Source: Sumerlaeia bacterium
GTDB taxonomy: Bacteria; Sumerlaeota; Sumerlaeia; SLMS01; JAHLLQ01
Assembly: GCA_040219255.1 (NCBI GenBank)
Contig: JAVJSW010000046.1
Coordinates: 1 to 64,000, forward strand
DNA length: 64,000 nucleotides
Direction of reading: 5' to 3'
The notes under the pieces: generated by a model
Seen by the model: only the letters and a program-made list of their open reading frames with translations
What the model was told of the DNA's origin: nothing
The model's database searches: none
Shown: piece after piece, positions 1 through 13,360 of the stretch
Numbering within the stretch: the first letter of the stretch is position 1
Layout: the number at the start of each line of letters is the position of its first letter
Position numbers and translations under genes: made by a program

Positions 1-118
1 GGATTGCGCAGCCTGACCGGCAGGTACCTGATGCTCAGAGGAAACGAAACCGCCGGATGCGACATCGCACGTCCGGTGGTGTGAGAGGGGGGCAGGGCGA
101 CCTACCCCCCTACTCGAT
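1..118 (+). mobile_element. 3' end of a group II intron, class IIC-like (end of RT ORF, domains V and VI)
   Basis: ACCGCCGGATGCGACATCGCACGTCCGGTGGTGTGAGAGGGG folds as a short DV with the CGC triad typical of IIC. It is followed by DVI ending CCCCCCTACTCGAT. Frame 1 reads GLRSLTGRY..., like a maturase C-terminus, and stops at 82-84. The 3' boundary is 118 or 119. Confidence 0.85.
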
Positions 119-653
119 TTATGCGGTTGCTGTAGCGGCTGTTTAGGTCTTTCCGCTTCCCTTCATAGAGCACACAGAACGACGTCACGAGGAAGTACGT
201 GACAGTCCCTCGGACCTGCTGCCTTTCCAGTACGACCACGAAGTCGAAATCCTTCAGCCAGACATAGGTCCTGATCGTCGTCCCCTTGCGCGTCGCTTCC
301 TCGTAGTCCCAGCTTACGATCTCCGGCTCATCGCAGTTCTCGATAGAGGCTCTTGTCCACGGAAGACAACCCGCCCGTTTCAAGTCCGGGAGGCGCTCTT
401 TCTCTTTCTTCTTGGTTTCCCTGTTTTCGACCCACTGATCACGCGTGACAAGGTGCCAGAAGCCTTCTTCCTTACCCTGCCCCATAGCCGGATCGATGCG
501 CGAGTTGTGCTTCACGCGACAACCTCGAAAGATTGGCTCAGAAACCTTGAAATCACGGGTAAAAATCTGGTAGAGCGACGAGAGAAAAGCGTACCAGTCC
601 CCACTGAAAGGGAGGGTGGCAGGCAACCAGGCGGGCGGTGTTGGTGACTTCAC
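102..653 (-). CDS. Small protein resembling phage P1 RlfB-like / RelE-PBECR-fold proteins
   Basis: Motifs EEGFWHLVT, ERLPDLKR, YVWLKDFDFVVVLE, YFLVTSF. Its GTG start overlaps the upstream TGA (GTGA). The last codons derive from the intron antisense strand. Confidence 0.6.
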   Translation of the reverse strand: MKSPTPPAWLPATLPFSGDWYAFLSSLYQIFTRDFKVSEPIFRGCRVKHNSRIDPAMGQGKEEGFWHLVTRDQWVENRETKKKEKERLPDLKRAGCLPWTRASIENCDEPEIVSWDYEEATRKGTTIRTYVWLKDFDFVVVLERQQVRGTVTYFLVTSFCVLYEGKRKDLNSRYSNRINRVGG

Positions 654-3600
654 AGCAGCAGGCCCTCCTGGTCGTGCAGCGTCTCCGCGATGAAGCGTTC
701 AGAACCAGGTGGGCTGTCCATAGACAGGGGGAAGCCGAGGGCGGCTTCGAGGTGCTCCACAAGTTCCCGCTTCGCCTTCGACTCTTCTGGCCTGCGCGGC
801 TTGCGGGCGAAACCGACTGCTCCGAGGAGGAGGTCGCAGACCTGGAGGAGGCGCACCTCGTGGCTCCGGATGTGCTGAAGTTCGATCGACTTCTCCACCA
901 TGTCTCCCGCGTCCGCGTGAAGGCGCTCTTCCAGCTCTCGCAGCTTATCCCTGCCCCGCGTGTCCTTCAGGTCGAGGAATGCCCGGTAGCGGTTGTCCGG
1001 CTCGATGGAGTTCCGGAGGAAGTCGAAGTAGAAGCGGTAGTAGAGGTGGTCCTTGGCATCCTCGGGCAGCTTCGCGAACGCCTTCTGCTTGTCGGGCAGC
1101 AGCTTCGTACGAAAGCGAAGCTGATCGATTGCGAGGAACCAGTCGAGCAGCGCCCTGTAGAAGGGCAGCGCTCCCTTGCCGACCTTGGTCCACTTGGCCT
1201 CGAAGTCCTTCGCCATGCCGTGCTTCTTCCATAGCGTTTCCAGATCGTCCAGCGCACCGCGCGTCGCTTCCTCGGGGCAGACGAGCATCCCGAGCAGCAG
1301 GTTCGGCTCCTCGTCGTGGGGCAGGTGCGCGGACTCGTCGCAGTAGAGGCGAAGGTGCTGCCGTTCCACCAGTTGCTCTTCTGCTTTCCCCTCTTTCGCG
1401 GCCAGGGCGCGGCGCTGTGCCTGCGCCAGCTTCGGATACCGGCGAGCATACCAGTTTTCCACCTCGCGGATGTCAGAGGCATCGAAACCGTACGCCTGGT
1501 AGACGAGGTGGTCGATCTCGATCTGCTCTACGACGCTAAAGTCGTAGTCGGGCGACCGTCCCAGCTTCTGAAGGATGTTCGTGACGAGGCGGCCTATCTC
1601 GGGAAGAGGAGTGGCGAGAATCGGTATATCCTCGATTAGGGAGTCGGTAGCGTCGACACCGTGAGATAGATATGACTTTACCAGATAGCGAGTGGGGAGC
1701 GAGCACAGGATTCCCAAAAGACTGTACATCTGTGCGCTGCCCACGAAGAGTGTTGCACCCTTCTGTCCAAACACTTTTCCGCAACCGACACGAAAGGTAG
1801 GTGCATATACCCCCGTCACGGAGTAAGTTATCCCAGCTTGAAAGTATCGGTGTCTGTTCCGAAGTCCGTTGACTGAGGCAAAGTAGGTCACAGCTTCTCT
1901 GGACCAATCGATGTAAAACTCGGGAGGCTTATAGTACTGAACTAGGCGTCCGTCCCCGGTGATCATCTTCCCGCTTTTGTCAAACTCGACGAACCTCGGG
2001 GTTGAAGCGGTGACCAGCGCAATGCCACGCTCTTGTTCTTCTTGCGTGAGTCGTCGACGGACGATAAGGTGTTCATCCACTTTCTGATAGCGACCGGAGC
2101 CAGTCGCTGACCGGACATAGGAATCATTGTCATACGTCTTCACTCCTCCGACAACCTCGGCGATGCTACCCAGCTTGAGAATCGTAACCGACCGTCCGCT
2201 TAGCGTCACTGACCTACCTGAGGCAGCTCTCCCTCCGAACTCCACGCGAGAGGTCGGAGCAGCCGTATCGTTCATCAAAGCAAAGAGCTTCGGCGACGCT
2301 ACGTAGAAGGGGATGTTGGTGTTGGTGCCGATGAGCGACTGTTTGTAGTAGTAGATCGCGTAGGTCTGGTTGGCGATGCTCTGGCGGCGGGCGAAGCCCT
2401 CGGTCTGGAAGAGGATGTGAAGGAACCGCTCGTACTGATCGTGGATCGAGAGGTTCGTCAGGTCAGCCATCTGGCAGACCTGATCCGCCGTGGCGCCACC
2501 TCGTTGCAGAAGGACGACCGCGCAGTTGACCGTGGCCCTGAAGGTATCGCCGGAGACGCGAAGCATCTTGTGGATGCGATGCCCGAGGAGTTGCTGGCGC
2601 AGGGGTTTGTGGGTCTTGATGGTCATGAAGGTGTCGCTGACGATGAAGGCGAGGACACCATCGTTCGCGAGGGGACCCTGGTCGGAGCCCATGAAGCGAG
2701 CCATGAACGCGCCGTAGGGGTCCTTCGAGCCGAGGCCCAGCCGATCCTTCATCGCATCGGGGATCTTCGTGCCGCCATAGGGTGGGTTGCCGATGACGAT
2801 GTGGAAGGGGGCCGTTCGCGTATGGCCTGCTTCCGCAACGAGTTCGGGGAAGAAGGAATCGACATCGAAGAAGGGAGCGGCGACGGTGGCGTGCTTGAAC
2901 CACTCGGCGAACCAGTGCTTGTCCTGCTCGTGACGTAGTCCTTCGTTGGCGGGCTTGATGCCCCGTACCTGCTCTGCAAAGCCAGGGTAAAGCCGCGCCA
3001 AAGCGTCGCCGATCTCCTGGGCGAGTTCGTCGCGGCGTTCCTGGGTGGTGCCAGGTTCGTAGTACTCTTCCCGTGCCTCCCGCAGCTTCTCCATCGTGCT
3101 GGCGGCCAGCATGTCGTGTTCGCCGTCTTCGAGGGAGTTACAGCAGAGAAGGTTCGTTTCCAGGTTTGGCAGAGGCTGGAGGCCGTAGTTGTGGCTGCGG
3201 TCAGCGGGCGAGACTTCTTGCTCGATCACGAGGGTGAGGAAGAAGCGAAGCTTGGCGATGAGGGCCGCGAGGGGCTGGATGTCGAGGCCATAGAGGTTCT
3301 TCTGGATCAGGCCGAGCTTACGCAGGTAGTTGTAGCTCTTCTGTTCCATCCCGCGAGCGGCATCTTCCCGCATGGCACGGGGGAGACGGGCGAGCAGGCG
3401 GCGCTTCCAGCGTTCGTTGTCCGGGTCGACCAGGGCGAGAAGTTCCACAATGCGATGCAGCATGCCCATAGGAAAGGCGCCTGAGCCCACCGCAGCATCC
3501 AATACGCGTACTTCATCCAGAAAGGCCACGACCCTCTCCGCGATCGGTGAGAAGTCCACGATGCCATCGGCGCGATAACAGAGCTGGGAGAGGAGCAGGA

Positions 3601-5185
3601 GGTCTTGCTTTGTCGCACCATCCTTCTCGAAGCGAGTCCTGAGGTGAAGGTGAAGCGCCTCGTTGACCATGTAATCGACGATGCGGCGGGGGGTGTAGTA
3701 GGAGCCCGAGGCCTTTCGGGCGCTCTCCGCAGCGGCATCGTCCGTCGGATCGATCTCGGCGAGGAGGTTCTCGAACACGAGGCCGAGCAGTTCTGGGTCG
3801 AGAGCGACGTCTTCTTCGAGGGGCGTGTTCTCAGCCACCGTGAAGCGATACCGGTCGAAGATGCGGTTGATGCCCTCTACAGAGCGGTTCTTCTTCCCCT
3901 TTCCACCTGCCGAAACAGTGAAGCCTTCATCTCTGGTGGCGTAAAACAGCTTGTTGGGGACCTTGAATGGAGTCCGTTCCACGTGGGTGAACTGGAGGTT
4001 GTCTTCGGGAAGAGCATCGAAGAGCCCGCCGTTGAGGTAAGGGATACGGTCGAGGAGGTCGTAGTCGAAGTCCTCCGGGAGGTTCTGCTTCCCGACGTAC
4101 GCGAGCTTAGCCAGCTTGGGGTCCGACGTTTCCGGGTCGTTCTTGGCCTGCGCGGCGGGCTTGCGCCGTTTGTCCATGGGGCAGTTGAGGGCCTTGAAGA
4201 AGATGTTCTGAAGGATGCCCCGGTAGTACTCGTTGGAGTTGCCGAAGCCGCGCTTGCTCGCCACCTTCGTCAGGATACGTGGCCGATCCGCCGCATCGTA
4301 AAGTTCGAGGAGTTCGCCAGGGATGAGGCGCATCTCCTTCAAGAACCAGGAGAACAGGAGGCGGCAGATGAGCCGGACGGTGAACTCTTGCGTGGCTCGC
4401 GTCCGGTTTGCAGACGTGTCGGGAACATGGTCGGGAAGACAAGCGAGCTTGATCTCGCCGTTCGCCCAGGTAAACCAGTCCACAAGCTCGCGATAGAAGC
4501 GAAGGTTGAGCTCCTGTGTCGAGAGGAGCTTCTGCCAGGCGGTATCAAGGTCATTGAAGGACCTGAGGGCACCCGACTCCTCCTTCAGGCGGGTGACGGA
4601 GAAGCGGTCGAGAAGGTCGAGGTGAGCCCGGTGCGGATGGTCGCAGGAGATGTTTCGGATCAGCGAGACCCTGGTCAGAACGTCACGGGAGCCGTCCTTC
4701 ATGTTCTTGCGCCGGTTGATCACAGCCAGGGAGATGCACTTGCCATGCTTGAAGAGGACCAGTACCGGCATGGGCACGAGGCGGTTGATGGCTCTCGTGA
4801 TCTTGCTCAACTCAGTTCGTGACGGCGCTGCACCATCGGCAGGGACCTCCAGCTCCACGGCGAAGAAGAGGTAGGACCGGATGTCCTTCGGCTCCCACGA
4901 CTCGGCGAGTTCGAGCGCAAGCTGTCCGCCGCTGCTCTTGCTAATCTCGCCCTCGGTGAGCTGGAAGAGCATGTGGACGGACTTCCAGCGACCGAGTAAG
5001 GCAGTCTCGTCGTCGAGGTAACCACCGGTGTCCAGCTTGTCCCTGAGGTCCTTCACCGAATCGATGCGGAGGCGCTTCTTTGAGACGTATCCCAAGTCGG
5101 TGAAGAACGCGAGAGAGGCCTCGTACAAGGGCTTATTGAGGAAAGCAGCGAGGGCTTTGTTCATCGTGTTGGGGTTCCCGTTCAT
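650..5185 (-). CDS. Type IIG/Eco57I-like N6-adenine DNA methyltransferase with TRD and C-terminal DUF3800-like domain
   Basis: YLNGGLF, GSYYTP, motif I LDAAVGSGAF and motif IV IGNPPY. The C-terminal ~235 aa begin LYCDESAHL and include EAKWTKV and LLQVCDLLLGAV. Confidence 0.85.
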   Translation of the reverse strand: MNGNPNTMNKALAAFLNKPLYEASLAFFTDLGYVSKKRLRIDSVKDLRDKLDTGGYLDDETALLGRWKSVHMLFQLTEGEISKSSGGQLALELAESWEPKDIRSYLFFAVELEVPADGAAPSRTELSKITRAINRLVPMPVLVLFKHGKCISLAVINRRKNMKDGSRDVLTRVSLIRNISCDHPHRAHLDLLDRFSVTRLKEESGALRSFNDLDTAWQKLLSTQELNLRFYRELVDWFTWANGEIKLACLPDHVPDTSANRTRATQEFTVRLICRLLFSWFLKEMRLIPGELLELYDAADRPRILTKVASKRGFGNSNEYYRGILQNIFFKALNCPMDKRRKPAAQAKNDPETSDPKLAKLAYVGKQNLPEDFDYDLLDRIPYLNGGLFDALPEDNLQFTHVERTPFKVPNKLFYATRDEGFTVSAGGKGKKNRSVEGINRIFDRYRFTVAENTPLEEDVALDPELLGLVFENLLAEIDPTDDAAAESARKASGSYYTPRRIVDYMVNEALHLHLRTRFEKDGATKQDLLLLSQLCYRADGIVDFSPIAERVVAFLDEVRVLDAAVGSGAFPMGMLHRIVELLALVDPDNERWKRRLLARLPRAMREDAARGMEQKSYNYLRKLGLIQKNLYGLDIQPLAALIAKLRFFLTLVIEQEVSPADRSHNYGLQPLPNLETNLLCCNSLEDGEHDMLAASTMEKLREAREEYYEPGTTQERRDELAQEIGDALARLYPGFAEQVRGIKPANEGLRHEQDKHWFAEWFKHATVAAPFFDVDSFFPELVAEAGHTRTAPFHIVIGNPPYGGTKIPDAMKDRLGLGSKDPYGAFMARFMGSDQGPLANDGVLAFIVSDTFMTIKTHKPLRQQLLGHRIHKMLRVSGDTFRATVNCAVVLLQRGGATADQVCQMADLTNLSIHDQYERFLHILFQTEGFARRQSIANQTYAIYYYKQSLIGTNTNIPFYVASPKLFALMNDTAAPTSRVEFGGRAASGRSVTLSGRSVTILKLGSIAEVVGGVKTYDNDSYVRSATGSGRYQKVDEHLIVRRRLTQEEQERGIALVTASTPRFVEFDKSGKMITGDGRLVQYYKPPEFYIDWSREAVTYFASVNGLRNRHRYFQAGITYSVTGVYAPTFRVGCGKVFGQKGATLFVGSAQMYSLLGILCSLPTRYLVKSYLSHGVDATDSLIEDIPILATPLPEIGRLVTNILQKLGRSPDYDFSVVEQIEIDHLVYQAYGFDASDIREVENWYARRYPKLAQAQRRALAAKEGKAEEQLVERQHLRLYCDESAHLPHDEEPNLLLGMLVCPEEATRGALDDLETLWKKHGMAKDFEAKWTKVGKGALPFYRALLDWFLAIDQLRFRTKLLPDKQKAFAKLPEDAKDHLYYRFYFDFLRNSIEPDNRYRAFLDLKDTRGRDKLRELEERLHADAGDMVEKSIELQHIRSHEVRLLQVCDLLLGAVGFARKPRRPEESKAKRELVEHLEAALGFPLSMDSPPGSERFIAETLHDQEGLLL

Positions 5186-8100
5186 GTTGTTGCCTTCTTG
5201 ATCACCAGCCAGGTTACGAGCTCGAAGTCCTCGGAGTCGTTGGCCTGTTCGTCTTCATCCGGGAGGACGAAGCTACGGCTGTCCTGAAGCCCGGAGGCGA
5301 GGCGGTGCTGGAAGGTTGCGACGATGGCGTCGATGCAGCGCTGAAGGAGCTTGTCGTAATGGCTCATGTCACGCCCGTCGTTGGTTGCCTGATCAAACAA
5401 GGCGCACAGTTCATCGTAAGGCACCGTCTTCTCCGAGCAGAGCTGCCGGTAGATGTTCAGGATCTGCTTGGGGTGGACGAAGTTCAGGCGCACGTTGCCA
5501 TCGCTGTGAACGTAGACCAGGTAGAACGGTTGCAGCGGGTTGATCTTCTCGCCCGAGGAGTGATCCACGGACTTCGCCTTCTGGCGGAGGCAGTAGATGA
5601 CACCAGGCTGGATCGTCGTCACGAGATCGGAGACCGAGGGGACGAGCGTATACAGGCCAAATGGGGCATCTTCGAGAGCCTGTCGGTTGGCCTCCAGGAA
5701 CTTCAGCAGCTCGATCCGGAAGTCATCCAGGTTGAACTCGGTGAGGCTGATGGTCTCGTCGAGATCTTCGAGGTCGAGTACTTCATCACGGAGCCGCTTG
5801 AGCTGACGATCACGGTATCGCAGATCCTCGGTGATGAGGTCCTCCAACTCTTGCTGGAGAAGGTTGTCTTCCTGGGTAGCCGAAACGTCGACCAAGGCCA
5901 TGCGGGCTTCGACCCGGTGCTTCAGGTTGATGTAGTTTTCCAGGTTCTTCGTCGGCCAGAAGTTGATGAGCTGGATGGCGTCGTTCCGGGACCCGATGCG
6001 GTCGCATCTTCCGAATCTTTGAATTATGCGTACGGGATTCCAATGAACGTCCGCGTTTACCACGGTATCGCAATCCTGTAGGTTCTGGCCTTCGCTGATG
6101 CAGTCTGTCGCGATCAGGAGGTCGATCTCGCCTTCCTGGGGCATGGACACGATCTTGTCGCGCTTCTTGGCCATGGGGGCGAAGTTGGTGAGGATGCGGT
6201 CGAACTCCTCCTGCCTGGAGAAGCCCTTGGGCCTGTAAGTAGTCTGACAGCCCCCTCCTCCAACGACCAGCGCGGAGTGGATGCCGAGCTCCTCAATAGC
6301 CCACTCATGAAGGTTCTTGTAGAGGTACCGTGCTGTGTCAGCGAAGGCGGTGAAAATGAGGATCTTCCGGTTCGGCTTCCCTTCACGGTTGATTGGAGGA
6401 TTACGGACCTTTGCACTGATGATTTCACGGAGACGTTGAAGCTTGAGATCTCGGTCTGGCGTGACGTCCTTGGCCTGAATGTACAGAAGGTTGAGCTGCT
6501 GCTTATCCTCATGAAGGGCCCGGAGCCACTTCTCCACGTTGAGGTAGGCGACCTTGTAACGCAGCTTTTTGCCAACCTCCAGGGCATCGCGGACCTCATC
6601 GTCTTCATCCCCGGCAAGATCTTCTGGGGCAACTTCAGCCAGATCGAGGTCAGGGAAGTCTTCTTGGAGGCGCAGGAACTTCTCCAGACGGGCCTCCAGC
6701 TTCTCAATCTTGTCGATGGTCCGCTCCATGGTGAGAGCGAACGAGTAGACGGAGCTTTCCAGGCGTTTGAGGAAGTTCACCTTCATCATGCCGATGAGGA
6801 AATCCTCACGTTGGGCCTGGGTGAAGTTGCCGACCCGGCGTGTGTATTCGTCTATCACTTCCTTGGGCAGGTCTGGCTTCAGGAAGGTAGATGGCTTGAA
6901 GAGGGAGAGCTTGTACTGGTCGATCTCCTCGCTGAGGCGGTCGTAAGGCAAGAAGCGGCCCTTGGCGTCGATGTCGGGACTCTCCGTTTGAGGCTTGAGC
7001 CTCCTCGGAAACTTGCCGAGACGCTCCATCTCGTGAGAGTAGTACTTCTGAACATGCTTCCTGGCGCGAGCGATGGTGAGGCCGTCGAGGATCTTGAAGA
7101 AGTCGCTGCCAAGGCGGCTGAGAAGCTCTGAGACCCGGCGTTCCTCCGGCTTGAGCTTCGACCAGGCCGTGAAGTGCCCCTGGGCTTTGCGTAGGGTTTC
7201 TTTCAGGTCGGGGATGCCAGAGTTGGCGAAGTAGTCATCCTCCCCAGCGGAGATGAAATAGAGCTGGTTGCGCAGATCCTTGAGATCATTGTTCACTGGT
7301 GTTGCCGACAGGAGGAGAACCTTGGTCCGCACACCTGACTGGATGATGTCCTCCATGAGCCGCATGTACCGGCTCTTCCTGATGATGTTGCCGTCCTCGT
7401 CCTTTTTCCCAGGAAGGTTGTTCCGGAAGTTGTGCGATTCGTCGATCACCACGAGGTCGTAGTTGGCCCAGTTCAGGGTCTCCAGATTGATGTCGCCACT
7501 GTAGCCGGACTGACGGCTCAGGTCAGTGTGAGAGAGCACATCGTACCTGAATCTGTCCTTCTCGAAGGGGTTCAGGACATCGTTGCTTCTGTAGACCGTC
7601 CAGTTGCCGCGGAGCTTCTTCGGGCAAAGGACCAGCACCCTCTCGTTTCTCAGCTCGAAGTACTTGATGACGGCCAGGGCCAGGTACGTCTTGCCCAGGC
7701 CCGTGGAATCGGCTACAACGCAGCCGTTGTGGCGCAGGATCTTGTTGATGGCTCCCTTTACGCCGTCCTTCTGAAACTCGAAGAGGGTCTTCCAGATCTC
7801 CGTGTCGAAGAGCGTGGTGCGCCCCAGATCCAGGTCCGTCTTGTCGGCCCCATCGAGGTAGGACTTGAAGATTTCGTAGAGGGTCTTGAAGTAGATGAAC
7901 TCAGGGCTGTGGTTCTGATAGATCTGTGCGAGGTATTGAAGAACGTCGTCTTTCACGTCCTTGGTAAGCTGGTTGCTATTCCAAAGATCGTTGAACCATG
8001 CCTTCAGATCCCGCCGATCACGATCGCTGTCCACGATGAGGTTGAGTTCGATGTTTCCGCCACTGCTGCTGAGCCCAAGCCCAGCAGTCGTGAAGTTGCT

Positions 8101-8523
8101 GCTACCAAGCAGTGCGGATTCGGTCCCCCCGCGAGTGACGTGATACATCTTCCCGTGTAGCAGGTTGAGCTGTCGGACGGACCTGATGGCGACTTTGTCA
8201 CGAATCCAGTCGGCGCATTCCTTCGCGACGCGCTTCTGCTGGAGGACGTTCGCGAGCCGAAGACCGTTGGAGTCCAGGACGAAGGACTTCTTCTCCGTCC
8301 GATCAGGATCCAGGTGGGTCACGAACCTGGGCTCACCGAACAGGAAGCGGAGGTGATCGATCGAATCCAACTCGGTCTTCAGGGCCTCGTAGGCGTAGAC
8401 CGTGAAAAAGGCCGAGACGATCGAGAGGTCGCAACCAGGCTGAAGCTGCTCACGCAGGTAATCGCCGACGCAGCCGCGGGTGTGATTGTCCCTGATGCCG
8501 GAGATGAGTGTCCTGCTGTTCAT
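5182..8523 (-). CDS. PLD-family nuclease fused to SNF2-type SF2 helicase
   Basis: HxK motif LHGKMY...GSSNFT...NIELN. Walker A ADSTGLGKT, Walker B DESH, SATP, ATDCISEGQNLQ and QRFGRCDRIG. Confidence 0.9.
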   Translation of the reverse strand: MNSRTLISGIRDNHTRGCVGDYLREQLQPGCDLSIVSAFFTVYAYEALKTELDSIDHLRFLFGEPRFVTHLDPDRTEKKSFVLDSNGLRLANVLQQKRVAKECADWIRDKVAIRSVRQLNLLHGKMYHVTRGGTESALLGSSNFTTAGLGLSSSGGNIELNLIVDSDRDRRDLKAWFNDLWNSNQLTKDVKDDVLQYLAQIYQNHSPEFIYFKTLYEIFKSYLDGADKTDLDLGRTTLFDTEIWKTLFEFQKDGVKGAINKILRHNGCVVADSTGLGKTYLALAVIKYFELRNERVLVLCPKKLRGNWTVYRSNDVLNPFEKDRFRYDVLSHTDLSRQSGYSGDINLETLNWANYDLVVIDESHNFRNNLPGKKDEDGNIIRKSRYMRLMEDIIQSGVRTKVLLLSATPVNNDLKDLRNQLYFISAGEDDYFANSGIPDLKETLRKAQGHFTAWSKLKPEERRVSELLSRLGSDFFKILDGLTIARARKHVQKYYSHEMERLGKFPRRLKPQTESPDIDAKGRFLPYDRLSEEIDQYKLSLFKPSTFLKPDLPKEVIDEYTRRVGNFTQAQREDFLIGMMKVNFLKRLESSVYSFALTMERTIDKIEKLEARLEKFLRLQEDFPDLDLAEVAPEDLAGDEDDEVRDALEVGKKLRYKVAYLNVEKWLRALHEDKQQLNLLYIQAKDVTPDRDLKLQRLREIISAKVRNPPINREGKPNRKILIFTAFADTARYLYKNLHEWAIEELGIHSALVVGGGGCQTTYRPKGFSRQEEFDRILTNFAPMAKKRDKIVSMPQEGEIDLLIATDCISEGQNLQDCDTVVNADVHWNPVRIIQRFGRCDRIGSRNDAIQLINFWPTKNLENYINLKHRVEARMALVDVSATQEDNLLQQELEDLITEDLRYRDRQLKRLRDEVLDLEDLDETISLTEFNLDDFRIELLKFLEANRQALEDAPFGLYTLVPSVSDLVTTIQPGVIYCLRQKAKSVDHSSGEKINPLQPFYLVYVHSDGNVRLNFVHPKQILNIYRQLCSEKTVPYDELCALFDQATNDGRDMSHYDKLLQRCIDAIVATFQHRLASGLQDSRSFVLPDEDEQANDSEDFELVTWLVIKKATT

Positions 8524-8729
8524 TCGTCCTCTCCTTCGGCTTGGGCATCGGGCGCACCCGCCTTACCAGATTTGACCCAGGCGTCGATCTCGTCGGGATC
8601 CAGCCTCCATAGCCTGCCAACACGATGGGCGGGTAGCCCGCGCTGGTGGATCCAGGCGTACACGGTATCCGTCGCAATGCCCAAGTGGGCCGCGGCCTCA
8701 GGAACGGTCAGCCATCGTTGCTCTGCCAT
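8520..8729 (-). CDS. Excisionase-family (HTH_17) DNA-binding protein, 69 aa
   Basis: WLTVPEAAAHLGIATDTVYAWI...LPAHRVGRLWR...EIDAWV. The stop overlaps the helicase ATG (ATGA). Start reassigned to ATG 8729. Confidence 0.85.
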   Translation of the reverse strand: MAEQRWLTVPEAAAHLGIATDTVYAWIHQRGLPAHRVGRLWRLDPDEIDAWVKSGKAGAPDAQAEGEDE

Positions 8730-8835
8730 GGAGGATCTTGGCCCTTGGAAATCGGGGTGAAACCCAGTACTGAACCGACGAGACCCGATGAGGACAGAGT
8801 GGGCAAGGAAGATCACAGGCAACAGGAGGCTTACC

Positions 8836-9350
8836 ATGGCGAAGAAGCGGAGGCGAGCAACGGTGCCGGAGTACATGGACTACTACGTCCAGATGGAGCA
8901 CTGGACACCCCAGATTGGCTTGGGAATCGACCACTGCCGAGCTTGGCAGAAGCCGTACTGGGAGGACTTCGGCGTGAAGATCCAGGGCCGGATGTTGGCA
9001 CCGCAGGCGGTGAGGAAGTTCGTGGTCAGAGGTGTGGCGGTCGAGGTGACCATCAGCGGGTCCCGGTGGATCAGTCGGATCATCACTGAGGCAGAAGAGA
9101 AGTGGGATGACCGAAAGCCCACGGGGTGGGCACTATGCAGGGGCTGAAGAGGTCGGGGGTGCCGTGGGCGCTGCTCTCCGCACCGATGGAGCAACTCCCC
9201 ATCATTGTGACGCTGCTCTGCCAGGAACGGGTTCGGTACCTTCACCTTCGCGGGGCACCCCTTCTCCGAGGAAGCGCGAATATCGAGGCATGGGATTTGA
9301 AGGAGGGGCTGGATCCCGACGATGACCCAGATGTGGAGCCACTGGATTAG
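8836..9350 (+). pseudogene. Hypothetical protein split by a 1-nt frameshift (or sequencing indel)
   Basis: AGGAGG RBS before ATG 8836. Adding one G to the GGGG at 9123-9126 joins ORFs 8836-9147 and 9126-9350 (...KPTGVGTMQG...). Confidence 0.55.
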
Positions 9351-9432: not shown

Positions 9433-10446
9433 TTACGGTTCGTCCCCCTGCTCCGCAGCCCGGACCTTGTTTGCAAGATCCTCGCTGGGCGTTGGTCCCT
9501 GACGGTAGCTGTAGCTCTCCCTCTTGATCCGCTCCCACTCCACTCGGGGGAGGTTGAAGATCATGCGCCTCGGGGAAGGATCGTTCCTTCTTCCCAGGGT
9601 CTTGTTCACTTCCTCCTTCAGGAACTTGGCCTGTGGAAGATCGACCTCTTCCATCTGGGGCTCTGCGATGGGCAGGTTCTGCTTCCTGATGGGGGCAACA
9701 GGGTGGACCCCGAAGATGTCCTGCTTGTAGTCCTGCTTCGCCATGTACCACAGGCAGCCAGCCAAGTGGGCTTCACTCTGGATGACTTGCACGTCTGTTG
9801 CCGTGCTCTCCCGGCGCTTGTAGCCAGCCGCCTCAGGCCACTCATCCTCAATCTTCTGGTGCACGTCCTTCAACAGTTTCGGGTCAGACACCCAGAGCCA
9901 GACGTGGAAGTGGATGGTGCAGCCGTCGGGCCCACGCTCCATGCAGCGGTAGCCCGCAATCTCGGCCCCTCTCTTCCTGCACCACCGTTCAACTCTCTTG
10001 ATGTACTTGTTGAACACGCGGAGGGCGGCCTTCTCCTCGATCATCTTCAAGGACGGGAACATAAGGGCCATCCCCATGCTCCTATCGATGCACTGGGCGG
10101 GGATGAGCTTCTTGAACTGGACGACGAGCCGATTTCGAGCCGCATCTGAGAGGCCGTGGATGTTGCCACGGGGCTTGATCTTGCCGGTCTTTGGATCACG
10201 CAGGCGTTCGAGCCACTGTTGACGTCGCTCTTCGTCCCACTCTTCGGAATGCACGAGCGCGACAAGGGGTGCCCCTGGGTACTCCACCAGGTAGGGCTCA
10301 AGGCGGTAGGCTTCGATCGGAGAGCCATTGGGTCGCCAGAGGGCTGGGTCAGGGAGGTATTCGTCGACGGAAGAAGCCGGAAACCTTGAGAGAAAGTCTC
10401 GCCACGAGGGCTTTGGCTCAGATTTTATAGATACGTCATCCGACAT
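9433..10446 (-). CDS. HUH-superfamily rolling-circle replication initiator-like protein
   Basis: HUH motif IHFHVWLW preceded by ME, catalytic-Tyr motif WYMAK, and an N-terminal RGNIHGLSDAARNRL segment as in RCR Rep-like proteins. GAGGAGG RBS upstream. Confidence 0.7.
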   Translation of the reverse strand: MSDDVSIKSEPKPSWRDFLSRFPASSVDEYLPDPALWRPNGSPIEAYRLEPYLVEYPGAPLVALVHSEEWDEERRQQWLERLRDPKTGKIKPRGNIHGLSDAARNRLVVQFKKLIPAQCIDRSMGMALMFPSLKMIEEKAALRVFNKYIKRVERWCRKRGAEIAGYRCMERGPDGCTIHFHVWLWVSDPKLLKDVHQKIEDEWPEAAGYKRRESTATDVQVIQSEAHLAGCLWYMAKQDYKQDIFGVHPVAPIRKQNLPIAEPQMEEVDLPQAKFLKEEVNKTLGRRNDPSPRRMIFNLPRVEWERIKRESYSYRQGPTPSEDLANKVRAAEQGDEP

Positions 10447-10579: not shown

Positions 10580-11080
10580 TCAGCCCGCCTCCTCCTTCAA
10601 CCAGGCCAGCACTTCAGCCGAGTGGTCTTCGCTGCCCTTGGCCTTCGGCCAGTGCATGGCGATCTTGCCGTCCGGATCAATGACGAAGGTTTCACGGCTG
10701 ACGCCCATGTACTTCTTCCCGTACATCGACTTCTCCTGCCAGAGGCCATACTTCTCCAGGATCTTCATGTCTTCATCGGCGAGCAGCGGGAAGTTCAGGC
10801 TGAACTTGTCCGCGAACTTCTTCTTCGACTTCGAGTCGAGGATGGAGATGCCCAGCACGACGGCGTTCAGCTTCGCGAACTCCGCCGTGGTGTCGCGAAA
10901 GCCGCAGCTCTCCGCCGAGCAGCCGGGAGTCGAATCCTTGGGGTACCCGTACAGGACAACCCAGCGGCCCTTGTAGTCGCTGAGCTTGTGGATCTTGCCG
11001 TCCTGATCGGGGAGCGCGAAGGCCGGGGCCTTCTTGCGGATCATGTCGGAGGGGGTCTCTCCGGTGTTCTTCTTTGCCAT
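10580..11080 (-). CDS. bcp: Peroxiredoxin, Bcp/PrxQ family (intact copy inside the element)
   Basis: APAFALPDQDG, YPKDSTPGCSAESC, KFSLNFPLLAD, KSMYGKKYMG and RETFVID. AAGGA RBS before ATG 11080. Confidence 0.92.
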   Translation of the reverse strand: MAKKNTGETPSDMIRKKAPAFALPDQDGKIHKLSDYKGRWVVLYGYPKDSTPGCSAESCGFRDTTAEFAKLNAVVLGISILDSKSKKKFADKFSLNFPLLADEDMKILEKYGLWQEKSMYGKKYMGVSRETFVIDPDGKIAMHWPKAKGSEDHSAEVLAWLKEEAG

Positions 11081-11119
11081 GGAGTACTGTCCTTTCATGA
11101 GTTACGGAGTGATGTCGAA

Positions 11120-11290
11120 CTACTGTGTAAGGCCAAAAGACGGCGTGTCGTCCTTCGGATAGAAGAACAGCACCACGTGCTTGCCCTTGTAATCGCTGAG
11201 CTTGTGCTGTTTGCCGTCCTGGTCGGGGAGGGTGAAGGCGGGGGCATTTTTGCCGATCATGTCGGAGGGGGTTTCCGCGGTTTTGGCCAT
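11120..11290 (-). pseudogene. bcp: Truncated 5' part of a second bcp gene
   Basis: [26 protein letters not shown]...[12 protein letters not shown], then unrelated SFGLTQ*. Has its own AGGAG RBS. 36/45 aa identical to the adjacent intact copy. Confidence 0.85.
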
Positions 11291-11363
11291 GGGTGGTATG
11301 GCTCCTGGGGTGGATTTGCGGAAGTGGAGGGAGCAAGAAAAGCGCCGGTGTGGCATGGCGGAT

Positions 11364-12011
11364 TCAGTCGCTGGCGGCCTCCAGCATTGCGAGCCATTCC
11401 TTGTCTCCGCGCACGATGGCGCCAAGGTTTTCGGTGACTTTCTCAACGGGCCAATTCCACCATCGAACCCGGAGAAGTTGGCCGATGGTTTCTTCGTCGA
11501 AGCGCTTGCGGATGGGGCGCGCGGGGTTGCCGCCAACGATCGTGTAGGGTTCGACGTCCCGGGTGACGACGGAGCCCGCGCCGACAATGGAGCCGTCGCC
11601 GATGCTCACGCCCGGCAGGACGGTCGCGCCGAACCCGATCCAGACGTCGTTTCCCACGACCGTGTCGCCTTTGTTTGTGGAGGAGTCTTGCGGGGGGACG
11701 TGGTTCCCCCAATCGTCACCAAAAATATAGAACGGAAAGGAGGAAAATCCCGCCAGCGAATGATTGCCGCCGTTCATCAAGAACCGTACGCCCCGGGCGA
11801 TCGAGCAGTAGCGCCCGATAATCAGGCGGTCTCCGATGAAGTCGAAGTGATAGAGCACATTATTCTTCTCGAAATTCTCCGGGCCCGCCGGGTCGTCGAA
11901 GTAGGTATAGTCGCCCACGATGATTCGCTCGCACTCGATGACCTGATTCAGGAAGACCAGGCCCTTGTATTGAGCCAGCGGGAAACGCTGTTGGCTGTCG
12001 GGGATGTTCAT
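11364..12011 (-). CDS. CatB/Vat-family hexapeptide O-acetyltransferase
   Basis: [51 protein letters not shown] and WWNW. ATGA overlap with the upstream gene. Confidence 0.9.
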
Positions 12012-13360
12012 GGGGTAAGCCTTTCCAGGGTCATCGCGGAGTCTTGATGCTCGCGTTTCGCGATTCGCCGGGCCCCCGCGGCCCCCACGACCCCCGCCGT
12101 CATCACAATCCACAGCGGATCCACCAACGCCAGTCGGTATCGCACGTCTGGCTGGCTGATGGCGTAGGGCAGGGTGACGGTCGCGCCGATCAGCAGCGCG
12201 AGCAGGGCGAGGCGCCGCGCTTCGCCCCCTCGCCGCAGCATCGCAATCAGCCCCCAGGTCCCGAGAATCAGAACCGGCGCCATACTGAGAAACGCGACGA
12301 TTTGCTGGGGGAGGGCGTTGCGGATGATCGGCGACCAGAAATGGGCGGCCTTTCTCACCGTCAGGATGGCGAAGAAGCCGGGGTCGGCGGCGATGTAGGC
12401 CTTGGCCTCGGCGGCCCATCGGGCGCCGGTGGCCATTTCGTCCTCGATTCCGGCGTAGGCGCGGAGTTGTGTCAGCTTCAAGTAGTCGTCCGGAACTTGC
12501 AGTAGCTCGCGCTCCTCGCCGTACCAGATGTTGGTGTAGAGCGAATGCTGCGTCAGTCCCTGGGCGAAGGTGATCGGAAAGTTCGTCGAGATGGGAATGA
12601 AGCGCCCTTCGCTCGCGACGGCATTGCGCGCCGTCCAACCGCCAAGGATCAGGGCCGCGGGAAGGGCATAGGCGGCGGCGGCGCTGAATCGGCCTTTCCA
12701 ATCGGCGCCCCCAAACCACAGCACGTAAAGCCCGAGCATCGGCACGGCCGCCCCCAGTGCGGACTTATTGAGAATCGCCAGCGCCATCAAACCCCCGGCC
12801 ACGCCATAGAGCGGGAGCGAACGGCGATTCTGGGCCAGCAGTAGCACCCAAACCGCCAGCAAGAGTTGGGTCCGAGCCAGCACTTCCGTGAGAATCTGAG
12901 CGGCTTGCAGGATGAAGGCGGGGTAGAGCGCGAAGCCCGCCGCCGCCAACACCGCCGCCCCTCGCGACAGCCCGCCCGCCCGGGCCACAGCTCCCGCCAG
13001 CGCGCAATTCAAGGCGCCCAGAAACGCCTGAACCACCGCCACCGCCAGCAAATTCCCCGCCCCAAAGAATGCGTACAGGACCGCAAGAAACACCGGAAAG
13101 ACCGGCGGGCGGAACGCCGTTGGCTCGCCACTCGGGGCCGAGTAGCGGAAATCGCTCAGCATCGTCCGGGCCAGGTGGTCGTAGTCGCCGGCGTCGCTCA
13201 GCGGCACCAGGCAGTCGCACGGGAGCGGGGGCGAAACGGAGACCATGATGAGGCGCAGCAGCAGCGCCAGGGCCGCGACCTCAAGGAGAACGATCCGGAA
13301 TCGGCGGGAATCGGATAGGGCGCTTTCGGCGTTCGAGAGCAGGGACCGGTGCAAAAACAT
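12008..13360 (-). CDS. ArnT/GT39-like membrane glycosyltransferase
   Basis: DAGDY...A, TAFRPPVFP, multiple TM segments, ILTE, WTARN and RY near the C-terminus. Confidence 0.75.
   Translation of the reverse strand: MFLHRSLLSNAESALSDSRRFRIVLLEVAALALLLRLIMVSVSPPLPCDCLVPLSDAGDYDHLARTMLSDFRYSAPSGEPTAFRPPVFPVFLAVLYAFFGAGNLLAVAVVQAFLGALNCALAGAVARAGGLSRGAAVLAAAGFALYPAFILQAAQILTEVLARTQLLLAVWVLLLAQNRRSLPLYGVAGGLMALAILNKSALGAAVPMLGLYVLWFGGADWKGRFSAAAAYALPAALILGGWTARNAVASEGRFIPISTNFPITFAQGLTQHSLYTNIWYGEERELLQVPDDYLKLTQLRAYAGIEDEMATGARWAAEAKAYIAADPGFFAILTVRKAAHFWSPIIRNALPQQIVAFLSMAPVLILGTWGLIAMLRRGGEARRLALLALLIGATVTLPYAISQPDVRYRLALVDPLWIVMTAGVVGAAGARRIAKREHQDSAMTLERLTP

Follow-up and report, generated by a model that had tools for sequence, protein, structure and literature searches.

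An integrative element, at least 17.5 kb long, interrupts the bcp gene of the host. The left part of the element lies in the window, meaning the whole 64,000-nucleotide stretch that was analysed, from the Sumerlaeota genome referred to here as G000. We observed the insertion itself, its two junctions, the recombinase genes, the placement of a second, complete bcp (the cargo bcp) and the recurrence of this arrangement in other genomes. Our reading, to which we assign a probability of about 80%, is that an integrative element with a plasmid-like backbone and anti-phage defence cargo entered at the Thr codon of the bcp catalytic motif through a large serine recombinase (LSR), bringing its own bcp with it.

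The host bcp gene and its two halves

The features considered are collected in Table 1. The earlier note described a bcp 5' fragment ending after ...DTP at position 11141, with a complete bcp 60 nt further on, and this was reproduced: the last bcp-like codon is CCG, ending at 11141 on the minus strand, after which seven element-encoded codons (SFGLTQ and a stop) extend the frame to 11120. The fragment is recognized by Pfam AhpC-TSA with E = 1.7e-13. The note predicted that the missing 3' half would adjoin a serine or tyrosine recombinase; it does lie on contig C16 of the same genome, together with an LSR and a tyrosine recombinase. It comprises 114 codons that are 69% identical to cargo residues 52-172, and when spliced in silico to the window fragment it yields an open bcp of 164 codons without a stop.

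Two similar bcp 5' regions separated by just 60 nt might also be expected from a tandem partial duplication of bcp, the upstream copy of which decayed without the involvement of any mobile element. We give this reading practically no chance, as at least 17.5 kb of DNA with recombinase, Rep and defence genes separates the upstream copy from its 3' remainder, as inverted-repeat arms flank the break, and as the two copies (73.8% nucleotide and 72% amino acid identity over 164 codons) fall into different clades of the bcp tree; the C16 remainder and the recombinases refute it.

On the host side of the junction, a homologue of the transferase (68% identical) is also found upstream of the bcp locus of a relative, G007. 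When the proteins flanking the G000 locus were sought in the bcp loci of 21 relatives, the transferase was common to G007 only, and an empty-site comparison by gene order could thus not be made. In a read search, contigs from run X1 matched window positions 11141-11900 with 0-2 differences, and one of them followed 11141-11364 with 2 differences before passing into a different arm that starts exactly at 11141. This contig, along with protein P0002, which begins as the host bcp fragment does and has a different tail, indicates that the same host flank is also occupied by another member of the family. Runs X1-X4 contained neither a circular junction nor an empty site from this organism, and none covered the cargo side. 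The matches in runs X2-X4 came from the intact bcp of other organisms and spanned only 36-50 nt of the conserved motif with 3-6 differences; an apparent joint from 10741 to 11141 in run X4 is the same conserved-motif artefact, again in another organism's intact bcp.

Table 1 Features of the element and its insertion site in the window and on contig C16.
Feature	Position	Strand	Remarks
Contig end inside the element, multi-copy repeat	1..122	.	Element goes on in C16
PDC-M04B partner protein, defence cargo	102..653	-	PADLOC PDC-M04B 1.9e-41
Type IIG-like Eco57I-family methyltransferase fused to DUF3800/PDC-M04A, defence cargo	650..5185	-	Pfam Eco57I 6.1e-15, DUF3800 2.3e-08; PADLOC REase_MTase_IIG 6.2e-42, PDC-M04A 4.8e-60
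PLD(HKD)-SNF2 helicase, defence cargo	5182..8523	-	Pfam PLDc_2, SNF2-rel_dom, Helicase_C; PADLOC C3a139 'HKD+Snf2' 2.9e-132
Small HTH_17 (excisionase/AlpA-like) DNA-binding protein	8520..8876	-	Pfam HTH_17 4.1e-16
Rep-like protein (REP_ORF2-G2P), backbone	9433..10446	-	Pfam 2.1e-06
Cargo bcp, complete, 166 aa	10580..11080 (11080->10580)	-	AhpC-TSA (PF00578) 4e-39, profile positions 1-122 of 124
Leader between P' arm and cargo bcp	11081..11115	-	Purine-rich ribosome-binding site GAAAGGA before ATG
Element left end, P' arm of attL, TCTTTTGGCCTTACACAGTAGTTCG	11116..11140	-	Inverted repeat of C16 P arm; source of SFGLTQ and stop
Core, 9-nt GACACGCCG	11149-11141; C16:6426-6434		Common to both junctions
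Host bcp 5' fragment	11141..11290	-	ATG at 11290; 50 codons; ...FFYPKDDTP is the left half of attB (B arm)
Hexapeptide-repeat transferase, host gene upstream of bcp	11364..12047	-	Pfam Hexapep 6.3e-13; host side of junction
EVE-domain gene	C16, element right part		
Tyrosine recombinase, 326 aa, Xer-like	C16:3340-4320	-	
Large serine recombinase (LSR), 659 aa	C16:4379-6358	-	
P arm	about C16:6402-6425		
bcp 3' remainder	C16, after core 6426-6434 to stop at 6779		Same genome

Gene content and extent of the element

The backbone consists of the Rep-like gene, the HTH protein, the tyrosine recombinase and the LSR, with the HTH_17 protein being a candidate directionality factor on the basis of its domain. 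As the parts of the element lie on separate contigs, both of which end there in multi-copy repeats (C16:1-146 as well as the window end), we can only infer that the window contig (C46) and C16 are contiguous within one element. The element of G007, at 18.3 kb, is whole on one contig and has the same gene order; between the two, identity reaches 81% for the Rep-like genes, which occupy the same position, 70% for the tyrosine recombinases and 85% for the cargo bcp. A second tyrosine recombinase, 60% identical, is encoded on contig C63, where no other element-related feature was found.

The attachment site

The ends of the element are 22-nt inverted repeats flanking the shared core, and when compared as inverted repeats the P and P' arms are identical at a fraction of 0.88 over 26 nt. 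The arms are separated by a 10-nt spacer, TGAC-AC-GCCG, centred on the AC dinucleotide of the codon for the catalytic Thr (11146-11145), two codons before the peroxidatic Cys. Owing to this symmetry, the crossover dinucleotide is probably the AC of Thr in the D-T-P-G-C motif. In that case, the final 4 nt (G CCG) of the 'host' fragment would belong to the element side; the host sequence on C16 has the same 4 nt. The inverted-repeat arms reach about 27 nt from the centre and have a conserved outer motif, YTTACRCA; seven other genomes have related arms, at a total of 10 further junctions. The layout is thus of the attP type, comprising two imperfect inverted half-sites, a central dinucleotide and an adjoining LSR gene, with about 40 nt between the start of this gene and the P arm. 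Elsewhere in G000, a search for attP-like arms returned the window attL only, besides two chance matches. Both junctions and the recombinase genes bear out the suggestion that an element is inserted at the catalytic-motif codons of bcp.

In G000, attP and attB have a block of 9 nt in common; in most junctions this block is 6 nt long, and in the second remainder of G009 only AC plus CC is left of it. Fragments 2 and 3 of G019 present no arm-target match left of AC. LSR crossover involves a 2-nt stagger, with no need for longer identity between attP and attB. Known LSRs do have common cores, with which the 6-9-nt blocks found here are compatible, although this is not diagnostic.

The recombinase responsible for integration

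The LSR contains the Pfam domains Resolvase (PF00239, 3.6e-14, residues 16-150), Recombinase (PF07508, 2.8e-08) and Zn_ribbon_recom (PF13408, 3.9e-07), and R21, S23, S24 and Q27 are invariant in an alignment of four LSRs of the family, with the catalytic Ser in an R-x-S context. The single sequence had no matches in the PDB; a profile of the four LSRs was required, and matched the A118, TP901-1 and phiC31 integrases, with the best score for the C-terminal domain of A118 integrase (2.2e-06) and 1.4e-04 for the catalytic domain of TP901-1. The LSR, rather than the tyrosine recombinase, most likely integrates the element through attP x attB recombination. Two points should be counted against this assignment, namely that the shared 6-9 nt exceed the 2 nt of an LSR and that a conserved tyrosine recombinase adjoins the LSR in 4/4 genomes.

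These same points could mean that the tyrosine recombinase is the integrating enzyme, with ACGCCG/GACACGCCG serving as an overlap region between core-binding inverted repeats. An identity block of 6-9 nt at both junctions fits such an overlap. Moreover, the G000 LSR is only 35% identical to the other LSRs of the family, G007 included, despite nearly the same left arms in G000 and G007, so that module exchange is required if the LSR is responsible; it is the tyrosine recombinase, at 70%, that matches the near-identical arms. Published SE elements that target bcp also rely on tyrosine recombinases, according to an excerpt of PMC9345347. Nonetheless, the identity block is off-centre relative to the dyad, and the junctions of G019 and G009 noted above dispense with most or all of the match left of AC or around it. 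The 22-26-nt repeats, with their reach of about 27 nt and the YTTACRCA outer motif, are LSR-sized, whereas simple tyrosine-recombinase sites have arms of 9-13 nt. In 4/4 genomes it is the LSR gene that borders directly on the att site, and a 326-aa Xer-like enzyme adjoining the Rep gene would rather suit multimer resolution. Integration by the tyrosine recombinase is, accordingly, quite unlikely in our view, and integration by the LSR is retained.

The cargo bcp

The earlier claim that the element carries a whole bcp holds, and its placement is conserved across junctions: the distance from the central AC to the cargo start codon is 64 nt in the window and 64-65 nt in 6/6 junctions that run directly into a bcp start. 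The gene has the same orientation as the broken host bcp. An in-frame ATG is also found at 11098, but homologues begin at MAK. The motif reads YGYPKDSTPGCSAESC / YPKDSTPGCSAESC, with Thr and both Cys retained, such that the PxxxTxxC motif and the resolving Cys five residues on are present (P-K-D-S-T-P-G-C-S-A-E-S-C). As the next-best bcp match in the genome is just 36% identical, the cargo copy is the sole close bcp. It clusters in the tree with other cargo copies (support 96/91) and is a member of a mobile bcp lineage that travels with the element family. It is presumably expressed and functional. On the minus strand, no terminator-like site was predicted from the fragment stop (11120) to the cargo start; a promoter scan gave no match, using a consensus that is not validated for this phylum.

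We thus picture the following course of events. The LSR would have recombined attP with attB across the AC of the Thr codon and so broken the host bcp, leaving a truncated ORF that ends at the stop supplied by the arm. Because the host gene is broken in this way, the element carries a bcp of its own, which is complete, has a ribosome-binding site and starts 64 nt inside attL. Given that this bcp is oriented as the host gene, we propose that transcripts begun at the host bcp promoter can extend into the cargo copy. With the host attB destroyed, family members that arrive later would insert into the resident cargo bcp. Several rounds of insertion, together with subsequent recombination between similar backbones, could then produce tandem arrays of bcp 5' fragments, although the order of events in such arrays is itself only a probable reconstruction.

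Recurrence in relatives and databases

Among 75 Sumerlaeota genomes, a related LSR (E<=1e-30) was found in four, and a bcp remainder adjoins it in 4/4. Fragments of the bcp 5' end lie upstream of a full bcp in 8 of the 25 genomes of the order, with up to 3 in tandem, and wherever a junction can be read, the break follows the same Thr-Pro codons. The elements of G007 and G019 likewise carry a full-length bcp. In every bcp clade, taxonomic families are mixed.

In a search of 5.8 billion proteins, at least 13 further bcp ORFs truncated right after ...DTP were seen (20 retrieved, window copy excluded), 12 of these 13 having arm-like tails (SFGLTQ, GFVFTHE..AA and similar). The same collection yielded three LSR homologues at E<=1e-30, the query included, among the 8000 word-sharing candidates that were scored, a number that has little bearing on the breadth of the family. 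When the DNA upstream of the 15 other full bcp genes was searched for decayed junctions, G023, G010 and G024 gave clear signals and G002 a weak one (z = 4.2), with nothing significant in G006 and G018. By eye, a KAPAF-containing remnant can be seen at -105 in G018, which was left out of the counts. In pattern scans, the three loci from a metagenome scan, none with a bcp, were rejected as chance matches, as were two of the seven loci from a scan of genome contigs.

Was the cargo copy recoded?

The earlier note had also proposed that the cargo bcp was selected to escape the recombinase of its own element. Its codon counts were reproduced (3/15 same-residue codons differing in LPDQDG..DYKG; 7/9, with 14/36 nt, in the last 12 codons), but the contrast between 7/9 and 3/15 arises from blocks that were picked with the data in view. 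Over the whole gene, 44/118 same-residue codons (37%) differ between host and cargo. For the synonymous test, the window was set beforehand to 8 codons on each side of Thr, with one-sided p values, and the peak was absent in 3/3 cargo/target pairs: the G000 pair gave 7/12 vs 37/97 (p = 0.15; 7/78 native pairs as extreme), the second pair 7/15 vs 52/106 (p = 0.67; 47/78) and the third 7/14 vs 42/107 (p = 0.31; 18/78). Cargo-type sequences are, moreover, themselves used as targets, so that the proposal was not upheld.

A version in which the cargo bcp was selected, largely by synonymous recoding near the crossover, against use as attB by its own or a sibling recombinase should still be weighed on total divergence. 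The G000 pair differs at 19/50 nt in the att window of +-24 nt vs 113/442 elsewhere, a ratio of 1.49 attained by 0/78 native/native pairs; the other two cargo/target pairs have ratios of 1.01 and 1.07, equalled by 9/78 and 6/78 native pairs, respectively, and the median ratio is 1.18 for the cargo clade vs native genes and 0.66 for native/native pairs. The base following AC is G or A in 6/6 used targets and T in 3/3 current cargo copies, and codon 53 begins with A in 6/6 used targets and with T in 6/6 unhit cargo-clade genes, with Ser53 being AGC in one used cargo-clade target and TCN in the unhit ones; in these comparisons the numbers are small and the sequences related. However, the excess in the att window rests on few amino acid changes (D48S/L, TK->SA) that are common to the whole clade, and thus reflects one or few events, while in the G000 pair alignment nt 246-276 diverges as much as the att window does. 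Cargo-type half-sites that were used as targets include Leu48 (CTA, twice), Ser48 (TCC, TCA) and a CSAQSC right arm, and in G019 an arm 23/24 identical to that of its neighbour is inserted inside that neighbour's cargo bcp. Nor can AC be recoded without loss of Thr. Recoding for escape is thus not supported, selection of this kind being rather unlikely, and the differences between cargo and host at the target site are mostly lineage history and not demonstrable recoding.

A broader idea, which we regard as doubtful, is that the bcp locus of this order is the site of an ongoing conflict between elements, in which serine-recombinase islands time and again overwrite the host allele with their mobile bcp and changes in the right arm of the cargo alleles (T after AC; Thr53->Ser via TCN) block re-use by siblings. 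If true, this would amount to target-site immunity within a housekeeping gene, the tandem 5' fragments would be a record of succession, and the bcp clades of mixed families would reflect element-driven gene replacement.

Significance and comparison with known systems

The Sumerlaeota element would be a second, mechanistically unrelated case of an element that homes to bcp and brings a bcp, with a serine recombinase in place of the tyrosine recombinases of Vibrio elements. As a second, unrelated type of element homes there, this suggests that bcp is a favoured 'safe' target, having an invariant catalytic motif and being dispensable long enough for swapping. A crossover on the Thr AC, which the enzyme cannot lose, would fix the landing site across the phylum, and the fragment arrays would offer a legible record of successive invasions and a route to horizontal replacement of a core antioxidant gene. 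At least three divergent LSR types are directed at one conserved 50-bp site, for which the family could supply natural attP/attB pairs, and the islands of the family would deliver defence systems (HKD-SNF2, type IIG-like methylase, PDC-M04). Our literature search revealed no serine-recombinase element in bcp and no mobile elements of such kind in Sumerlaeota.

Several LSRs split genes, such as A118 in comK, SPbeta in spsM, skin in sigK and Bxb1 in groEL1, all of them inserting within the coding sequence and using an attP of about 50 bp that is built of inverted-repeat half-sites. The Sumerlaeota element shares the LSR, attP layout and coding insertion with the A118 kind and differs by its replacement bcp; to our knowledge, the genes split by A118, SPbeta, skin and Bxb1 stay broken until excision, with no replacement copy. 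Islands with dusA-specific integrases reportedly integrate within a conserved gene and repair the damage, and at classical attP sites that restore tRNAs or gene ends, the displaced gene end alone is restored. Unlike these, which supply only a gene end, the Sumerlaeota element supplies the whole gene and leaves the host fragment as a short dead ORF. The genomic island in recA of Vibrio cholerae is said to interrupt a housekeeping gene and to bring a divergent full-length recA. Such recA-mobile elements, cited as an analogue in PMC5991714, resemble the Sumerlaeota element in replacing the interrupted gene, with gene and host being different.

The closest likeness is to Tn6283/SE-6283 of Vibrio, which, in excerpts of PMC5991714 and PMC9345347, integrates site-specifically into bcp and carries its own bcp homologue, suggested by the authors to compensate; relatives in several species are all described there as lying in bcp and carrying a bcp, with tandem copies seen at the site. 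The view in the earlier note that whole-gene replacement is unusual is fair, but such replacement is not new, as Tn6283/SE-6283 does so with bcp (same excerpts). Insertion inside bcp and a full-length replacement bcp are common to both systems. The excerpts further describe, for SE elements, an intA/intB tyrosine recombinase core, copy-out-like strand-biased circularization and an attB without an inverted repeat. The Sumerlaeota element, in contrast, has an LSR adjoining a quasi-palindromic attP and, unlike the two-tyrosine core, one Phage_integrase ORF plus the LSR, both in G000 (7 C16 element ORFs scanned) and in G007 (8 scanned out of about 14 element ORFs with 90 aa or more). The Vibrio SE target probably lies in the 3' half of bcp and not in the catalytic motif, because the E. 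coli attB primers given in the excerpt of PMC5991714 start at RFAEKEL, about residues 86-92 here. With Sumerlaeota as the host phylum rather than Vibrio as the host, the island described here is a convergent serine-recombinase variant of the published bcp-targeting, bcp-carrying elements.

An element inserted in the host bcp gene

The relevant features of the window are all on the minus strand, and their coordinates are listed below together with those of related loci. The earlier note had described a broken bcp 5' fragment followed 60 nt on by an intact bcp, and we confirmed this arrangement: after 11141 the host ORF continues for only seven unrelated codons to a stop at 11120, while the intact copy carried by the element (cargo bcp) has the motif YPKDSTPGCSAESC. 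The note had also predicted that the missing 3' half would lie beside a serine or tyrosine recombinase. It was found on C16, a second contig of the same genome (G000), adjoining both enzyme types. There, the sequence runs from the P arm of the element through GACACGCCG and GGC TGC ... to a bcp stop at 6779. Directly upstream of the remainder, on the opposite strand, is a large serine recombinase (LSR) of 659 aa, identified by its Resolvase, Recombinase and Zn_ribbon_recom domains; beyond it come a 326-aa tyrosine recombinase and then small ORFs and an EVE-domain gene. As the two host halves, when joined by script, form an open 164-codon bcp without a stop, the host gene was cut rather than decayed.

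Coordinates and arrangement of the bcp-associated features
Feature	Location	Strand	Description
Host bcp 5' fragment	window 11290->11141	-	50 Bcp-matching codons to ...FFYPKDDTP; Pfam AhpC-TSA 1.7e-13
Cargo bcp, complete, 166 aa	window 11080->10580 (starts 60 nt past 11141)	-	AhpC-TSA 4e-39
Crossover dinucleotide AC, inferred	window 11146-11145		within Thr codon
Defence cargo (PADLOC)	window 102-8523
bcp 3' remainder	C16:6414-6776		69% identity to residues 52-172 (cargo protein vs own genome)
LSR/tyrosine recombinase pair	L007 (G000:C16) 3340-6358
LSR/tyrosine recombinase pair	L043 2728-5542
LSR/tyrosine recombinase pair	L048 1519-4300
LSR/tyrosine recombinase pair	L045 8480-11468
G007 locus			degenerate fragment, intact fragment, full bcp, 18.3-kb element, LSR, two remainders
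G019 locus			three tandem fragments, then full bcp; C35 end overlaps C37 start
G009 locus			two fragments and two remainders

The first base of the window is also the first of its contig, C46. Copies of C46:1-122 are found near the starts of C70, C3 and C35, and copies of C16:1-146 at the ends of C39, C26, C20 and C54. As both ends are thus copies of multi-copy repeats also found at the starts or ends of other contigs, an unassembled repeat, IS or intron-like, probably interrupts the island, and we only infer that the C46 and C16 parts belong to one element. A second tyrosine recombinase, 60% identical, is found at the end of a 9.3-kb contig (G000:C63:8462-9193), where a search for other island-like content returned nothing beyond this enzyme.

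Junctions and the integrating enzyme

In bcp orientation, attL reads ...GAC GAC ACG CCG followed by TCTTTTGGCCTTACACAGTAGTTCG, and attR reads ...ACTACTGTGTAAAGCCAAAAGA TGACACGCCG GGC TGC. The element ends are inverted repeats (0.88 identity over 26 nt) with a 10-nt spacer between them, centred on the AC of the Thr codon, and the junctions of a related genome, G019, give the same centre. The left half of the target, attB, is similar to the element arms for about 14 nt out from the centre, as expected if one protein would bind all of them. A 9-nt block common to both junctions, and the conserved tyrosine recombinase adjoining the LSR, would suit the minor alternative that this enzyme, rather than the LSR, integrates the element. 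Long quasi-palindromic arms adjoining an integrase gene are, however, the LSR pattern. Integration by the LSR is thus the preferred reading; a profile of the four LSRs of the family matches the A118, TP901-1 and phiC31 integrases.

A family of elements

LSR homologues of 32-37% identity occur in four of the 75 genomes of the phylum, G000 counted. In all four the LSR adjoins a bcp 3' remainder and a conserved tyrosine recombinase, and the opposite element end shows one or more bcp 5' fragments and then a full bcp. The insertion in bcp and the replacement design are each strongly supported, and each extends to a family of elements. When the order's 25 genomes were surveyed with the cargo protein, G005, G010, G023 and G024 also proved to have fragments, lying 1.1-1.9 kb upstream of a full bcp (the G005 locus being the JANQSL record, with 100% identity over 3477 nt), for a total of eight genomes with such fragments. 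All readable junctions break after the same Thr-Pro codons, the AC-to-start distance is 64-65 nt in 6/6 junctions running directly into a bcp start, and the fragment ORF invariably ends at a stop within the arm or leader, 21-40 nt ahead of that start.

When 185,579 species genomes were scanned for the exact attL pattern, the true loci, those with a bcp, were confined to Sumerlaeota and numbered 5, in 4 genomes; 2 further loci were chance matches, as was everything returned by the metagenome scan for the attL pattern. With the 56-aa dead ORF as protein query, 204 short proteins were matched. Among 20 examined, the window copy set aside, 13 are bcp cut right after ...DTP, 12 of them with arm-like tails; four of the 13 are junctions already counted in G005, G009, G019 and G023.

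Several other loci should be considered separately. In G020, C52:1-153 and C4:72236-72626 (L082, L083) overlap by 55 nt and both break exactly at ...ACGCCG of bcp. Rather than proof of an insertion, we take this to be a branch of the assembly at the crossover site, possibly reflecting occupied and empty alleles in one population. L050 of G005 (JANQSL010000114.1, 387-2829), where an ECF sigma/membrane protein pair (assigned by eye) separates the dead fragment and its arm from a full native-type bcp further on, is a scar with different content. The second fragment of L084 in G024 (943-996), with KKAPAF fused directly to the distal arm part (ACGCACGAAAGC), is an internally deleted old junction. 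A second LSR (31%) and tyrosine recombinase (49%) pair on G009:C263 (L013, L095), away from any bcp piece, appears to be a related module with a different target.

Element content

The gene order common to G000 and G007 is bcp, Rep-like, PLD-SNF2 helicase, Eco57I-type methylase, variable genes, tyrosine recombinase and LSR. Identity between the two is 81% for Rep and 85% for cargo bcp, while the values of 35% for the LSR and 70% for the tyrosine recombinase imply that the LSR module was swapped; the integrase module has evidently been exchanged between family members. The defence cargo comprises HKD+Snf2 (candidate C3a139, 2.9e-132), PDC-M04B, and a 1511-aa Eco57I-type (type IIG-like) methylase in fusion with DUF3800/PDC-M04A; in the G007 element, one finds instead an MmeI/TaqI_C-type methylase, an AAA ATPase and an HATPase_c_3 protein. 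The element is a defence island whose small integrative backbone includes the Rep-like gene.

Repeated use of the site

Contigs of X1, a public sequencing run, match host side 11141-11900 with 0-2 differences, and one of them turns at 11141 into a different family arm (reverse complement AGCTTTGTCTTTACGCACGAAAATTG). Database protein P0002, a truncated bcp, combines an N-terminus one change away from that of the host with the corresponding tail SFVFTHENCMAA. Near-identical hosts thus differ in the family member that occupies the site, on the basis of one 270-nt contig and one protein record.

In G019, fragments 2 and 3 end in KDL-TP, the cargo-type motif, and are therefore 5' ends of earlier cargo genes, hit in turn. 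The P arm compares to the arms after fragments 1, 2 and 3 at 0.92, 0.88 and 0.62; as the poorly matching third is the one beside the present cargo bcp, the locus is a composite of at least three insertions, with inner right ends lost. In G007, the inner element lies within a cargo-clade bcp (fragment 2 and remainder 1, CSAQSC), itself flanked by an outer remainder on one side and a degenerate outer fragment on the other. A later element would thus insert, nested, into the cargo bcp of the resident, and recombination between similar backbones would follow. Between the outer fragment and remainder of G007 (L042 6122-7009, L043 5977-8706) are also a SAM-methyltransferase and a P-type cation ATPase, without recombinase, which may be a remnant of an older occupant.

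In a tree of the C-terminal 115 residues, one clade (96/91) unites the three cargo copies with the two remainders of G007 and with the only bcp of each of G002, G006 and G018. Each of the three bcp clades contains members of both taxonomic families, f1 and f2, and the tree thus departs from taxonomy within the order. In sequences this short, such mixing would fit horizontal spread of bcp alleles.

Was the cargo bcp recoded?

The counts behind the earlier claim of uneven codon divergence (3/15 and 7/9 same-residue codons, 14/36 nt) were recomputed identically; over the whole gene, 44/118 same-residue codons differ, with 73.8% nt identity. Windows were fixed in advance and calibrated with 13 native bcp genes, which form 78 pairs. 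For total differences, the ratio of +-24 nt around AC to the rest of the gene was 1.49, 1.01 and 1.07 in three cargo/target pairs (native median, 0.66), values reached by 0, 9 and 6 of the 78 native pairs. Synonymous differences, +-8 codons vs rest, were 7/12 vs 37/97 (p = 0.15), 7/15 vs 52/106 (p = 0.67) and 7/14 vs 42/107 (p = 0.31), with 7, 47 and 18 native pairs as extreme. As none is significant, the host vs cargo comparison that the note had proposed gives no dS peak at the site. The excess stems from few amino-acid changes (D48S/L, T53S, K54A) common to the whole cargo clade. Codon 48 in used left arms is GAC, CTA (twice), TCC and TCA, and one used right arm is CSAQSC; judged from these sequences, the cargo-clade variants would give no protection. 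With no dS peak, and with cargo-type variants used as targets, recoding to escape the recombinase is unsupported and at most an unlikely reading. Directly after AC, used targets have G or A (6/6) and current cargo copies T (3/3); at the first position of codon 53, used targets have A (6/6) and unhit cargo-clade genes T (6/6). These two right-arm positions, in small numbers of related sequences, may offer a lead on site re-use.

Comparison with known systems

Our literature search turned up no published serine-recombinase element in bcp and no report of such elements from Sumerlaeota. Tn6283/SE-6283 of Vibrio inserts into bcp and brings along a bcp homologue, which the authors propose compensates for the lost gene, and relatives in other Vibrio species show the same targeting and carriage (PMC5991714, PMC9345347); recA-mobile elements are cited as a further analogue (PMC5991714). 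Judged from the attB primers in that text, the Vibrio target would be the 3' half of bcp. As described there, Tn6283/SE-6283 relies on tyrosine recombinases and its attB lacks inverted repeats, whereas the Sumerlaeota element has an LSR and inverted-repeat arms. The kind of system is thus known from Vibrio, and the Sumerlaeota element is a convergent LSR-based variant, with a fixed layout that would capture the host promoter, and with serial insertions preserved as a fossil record.
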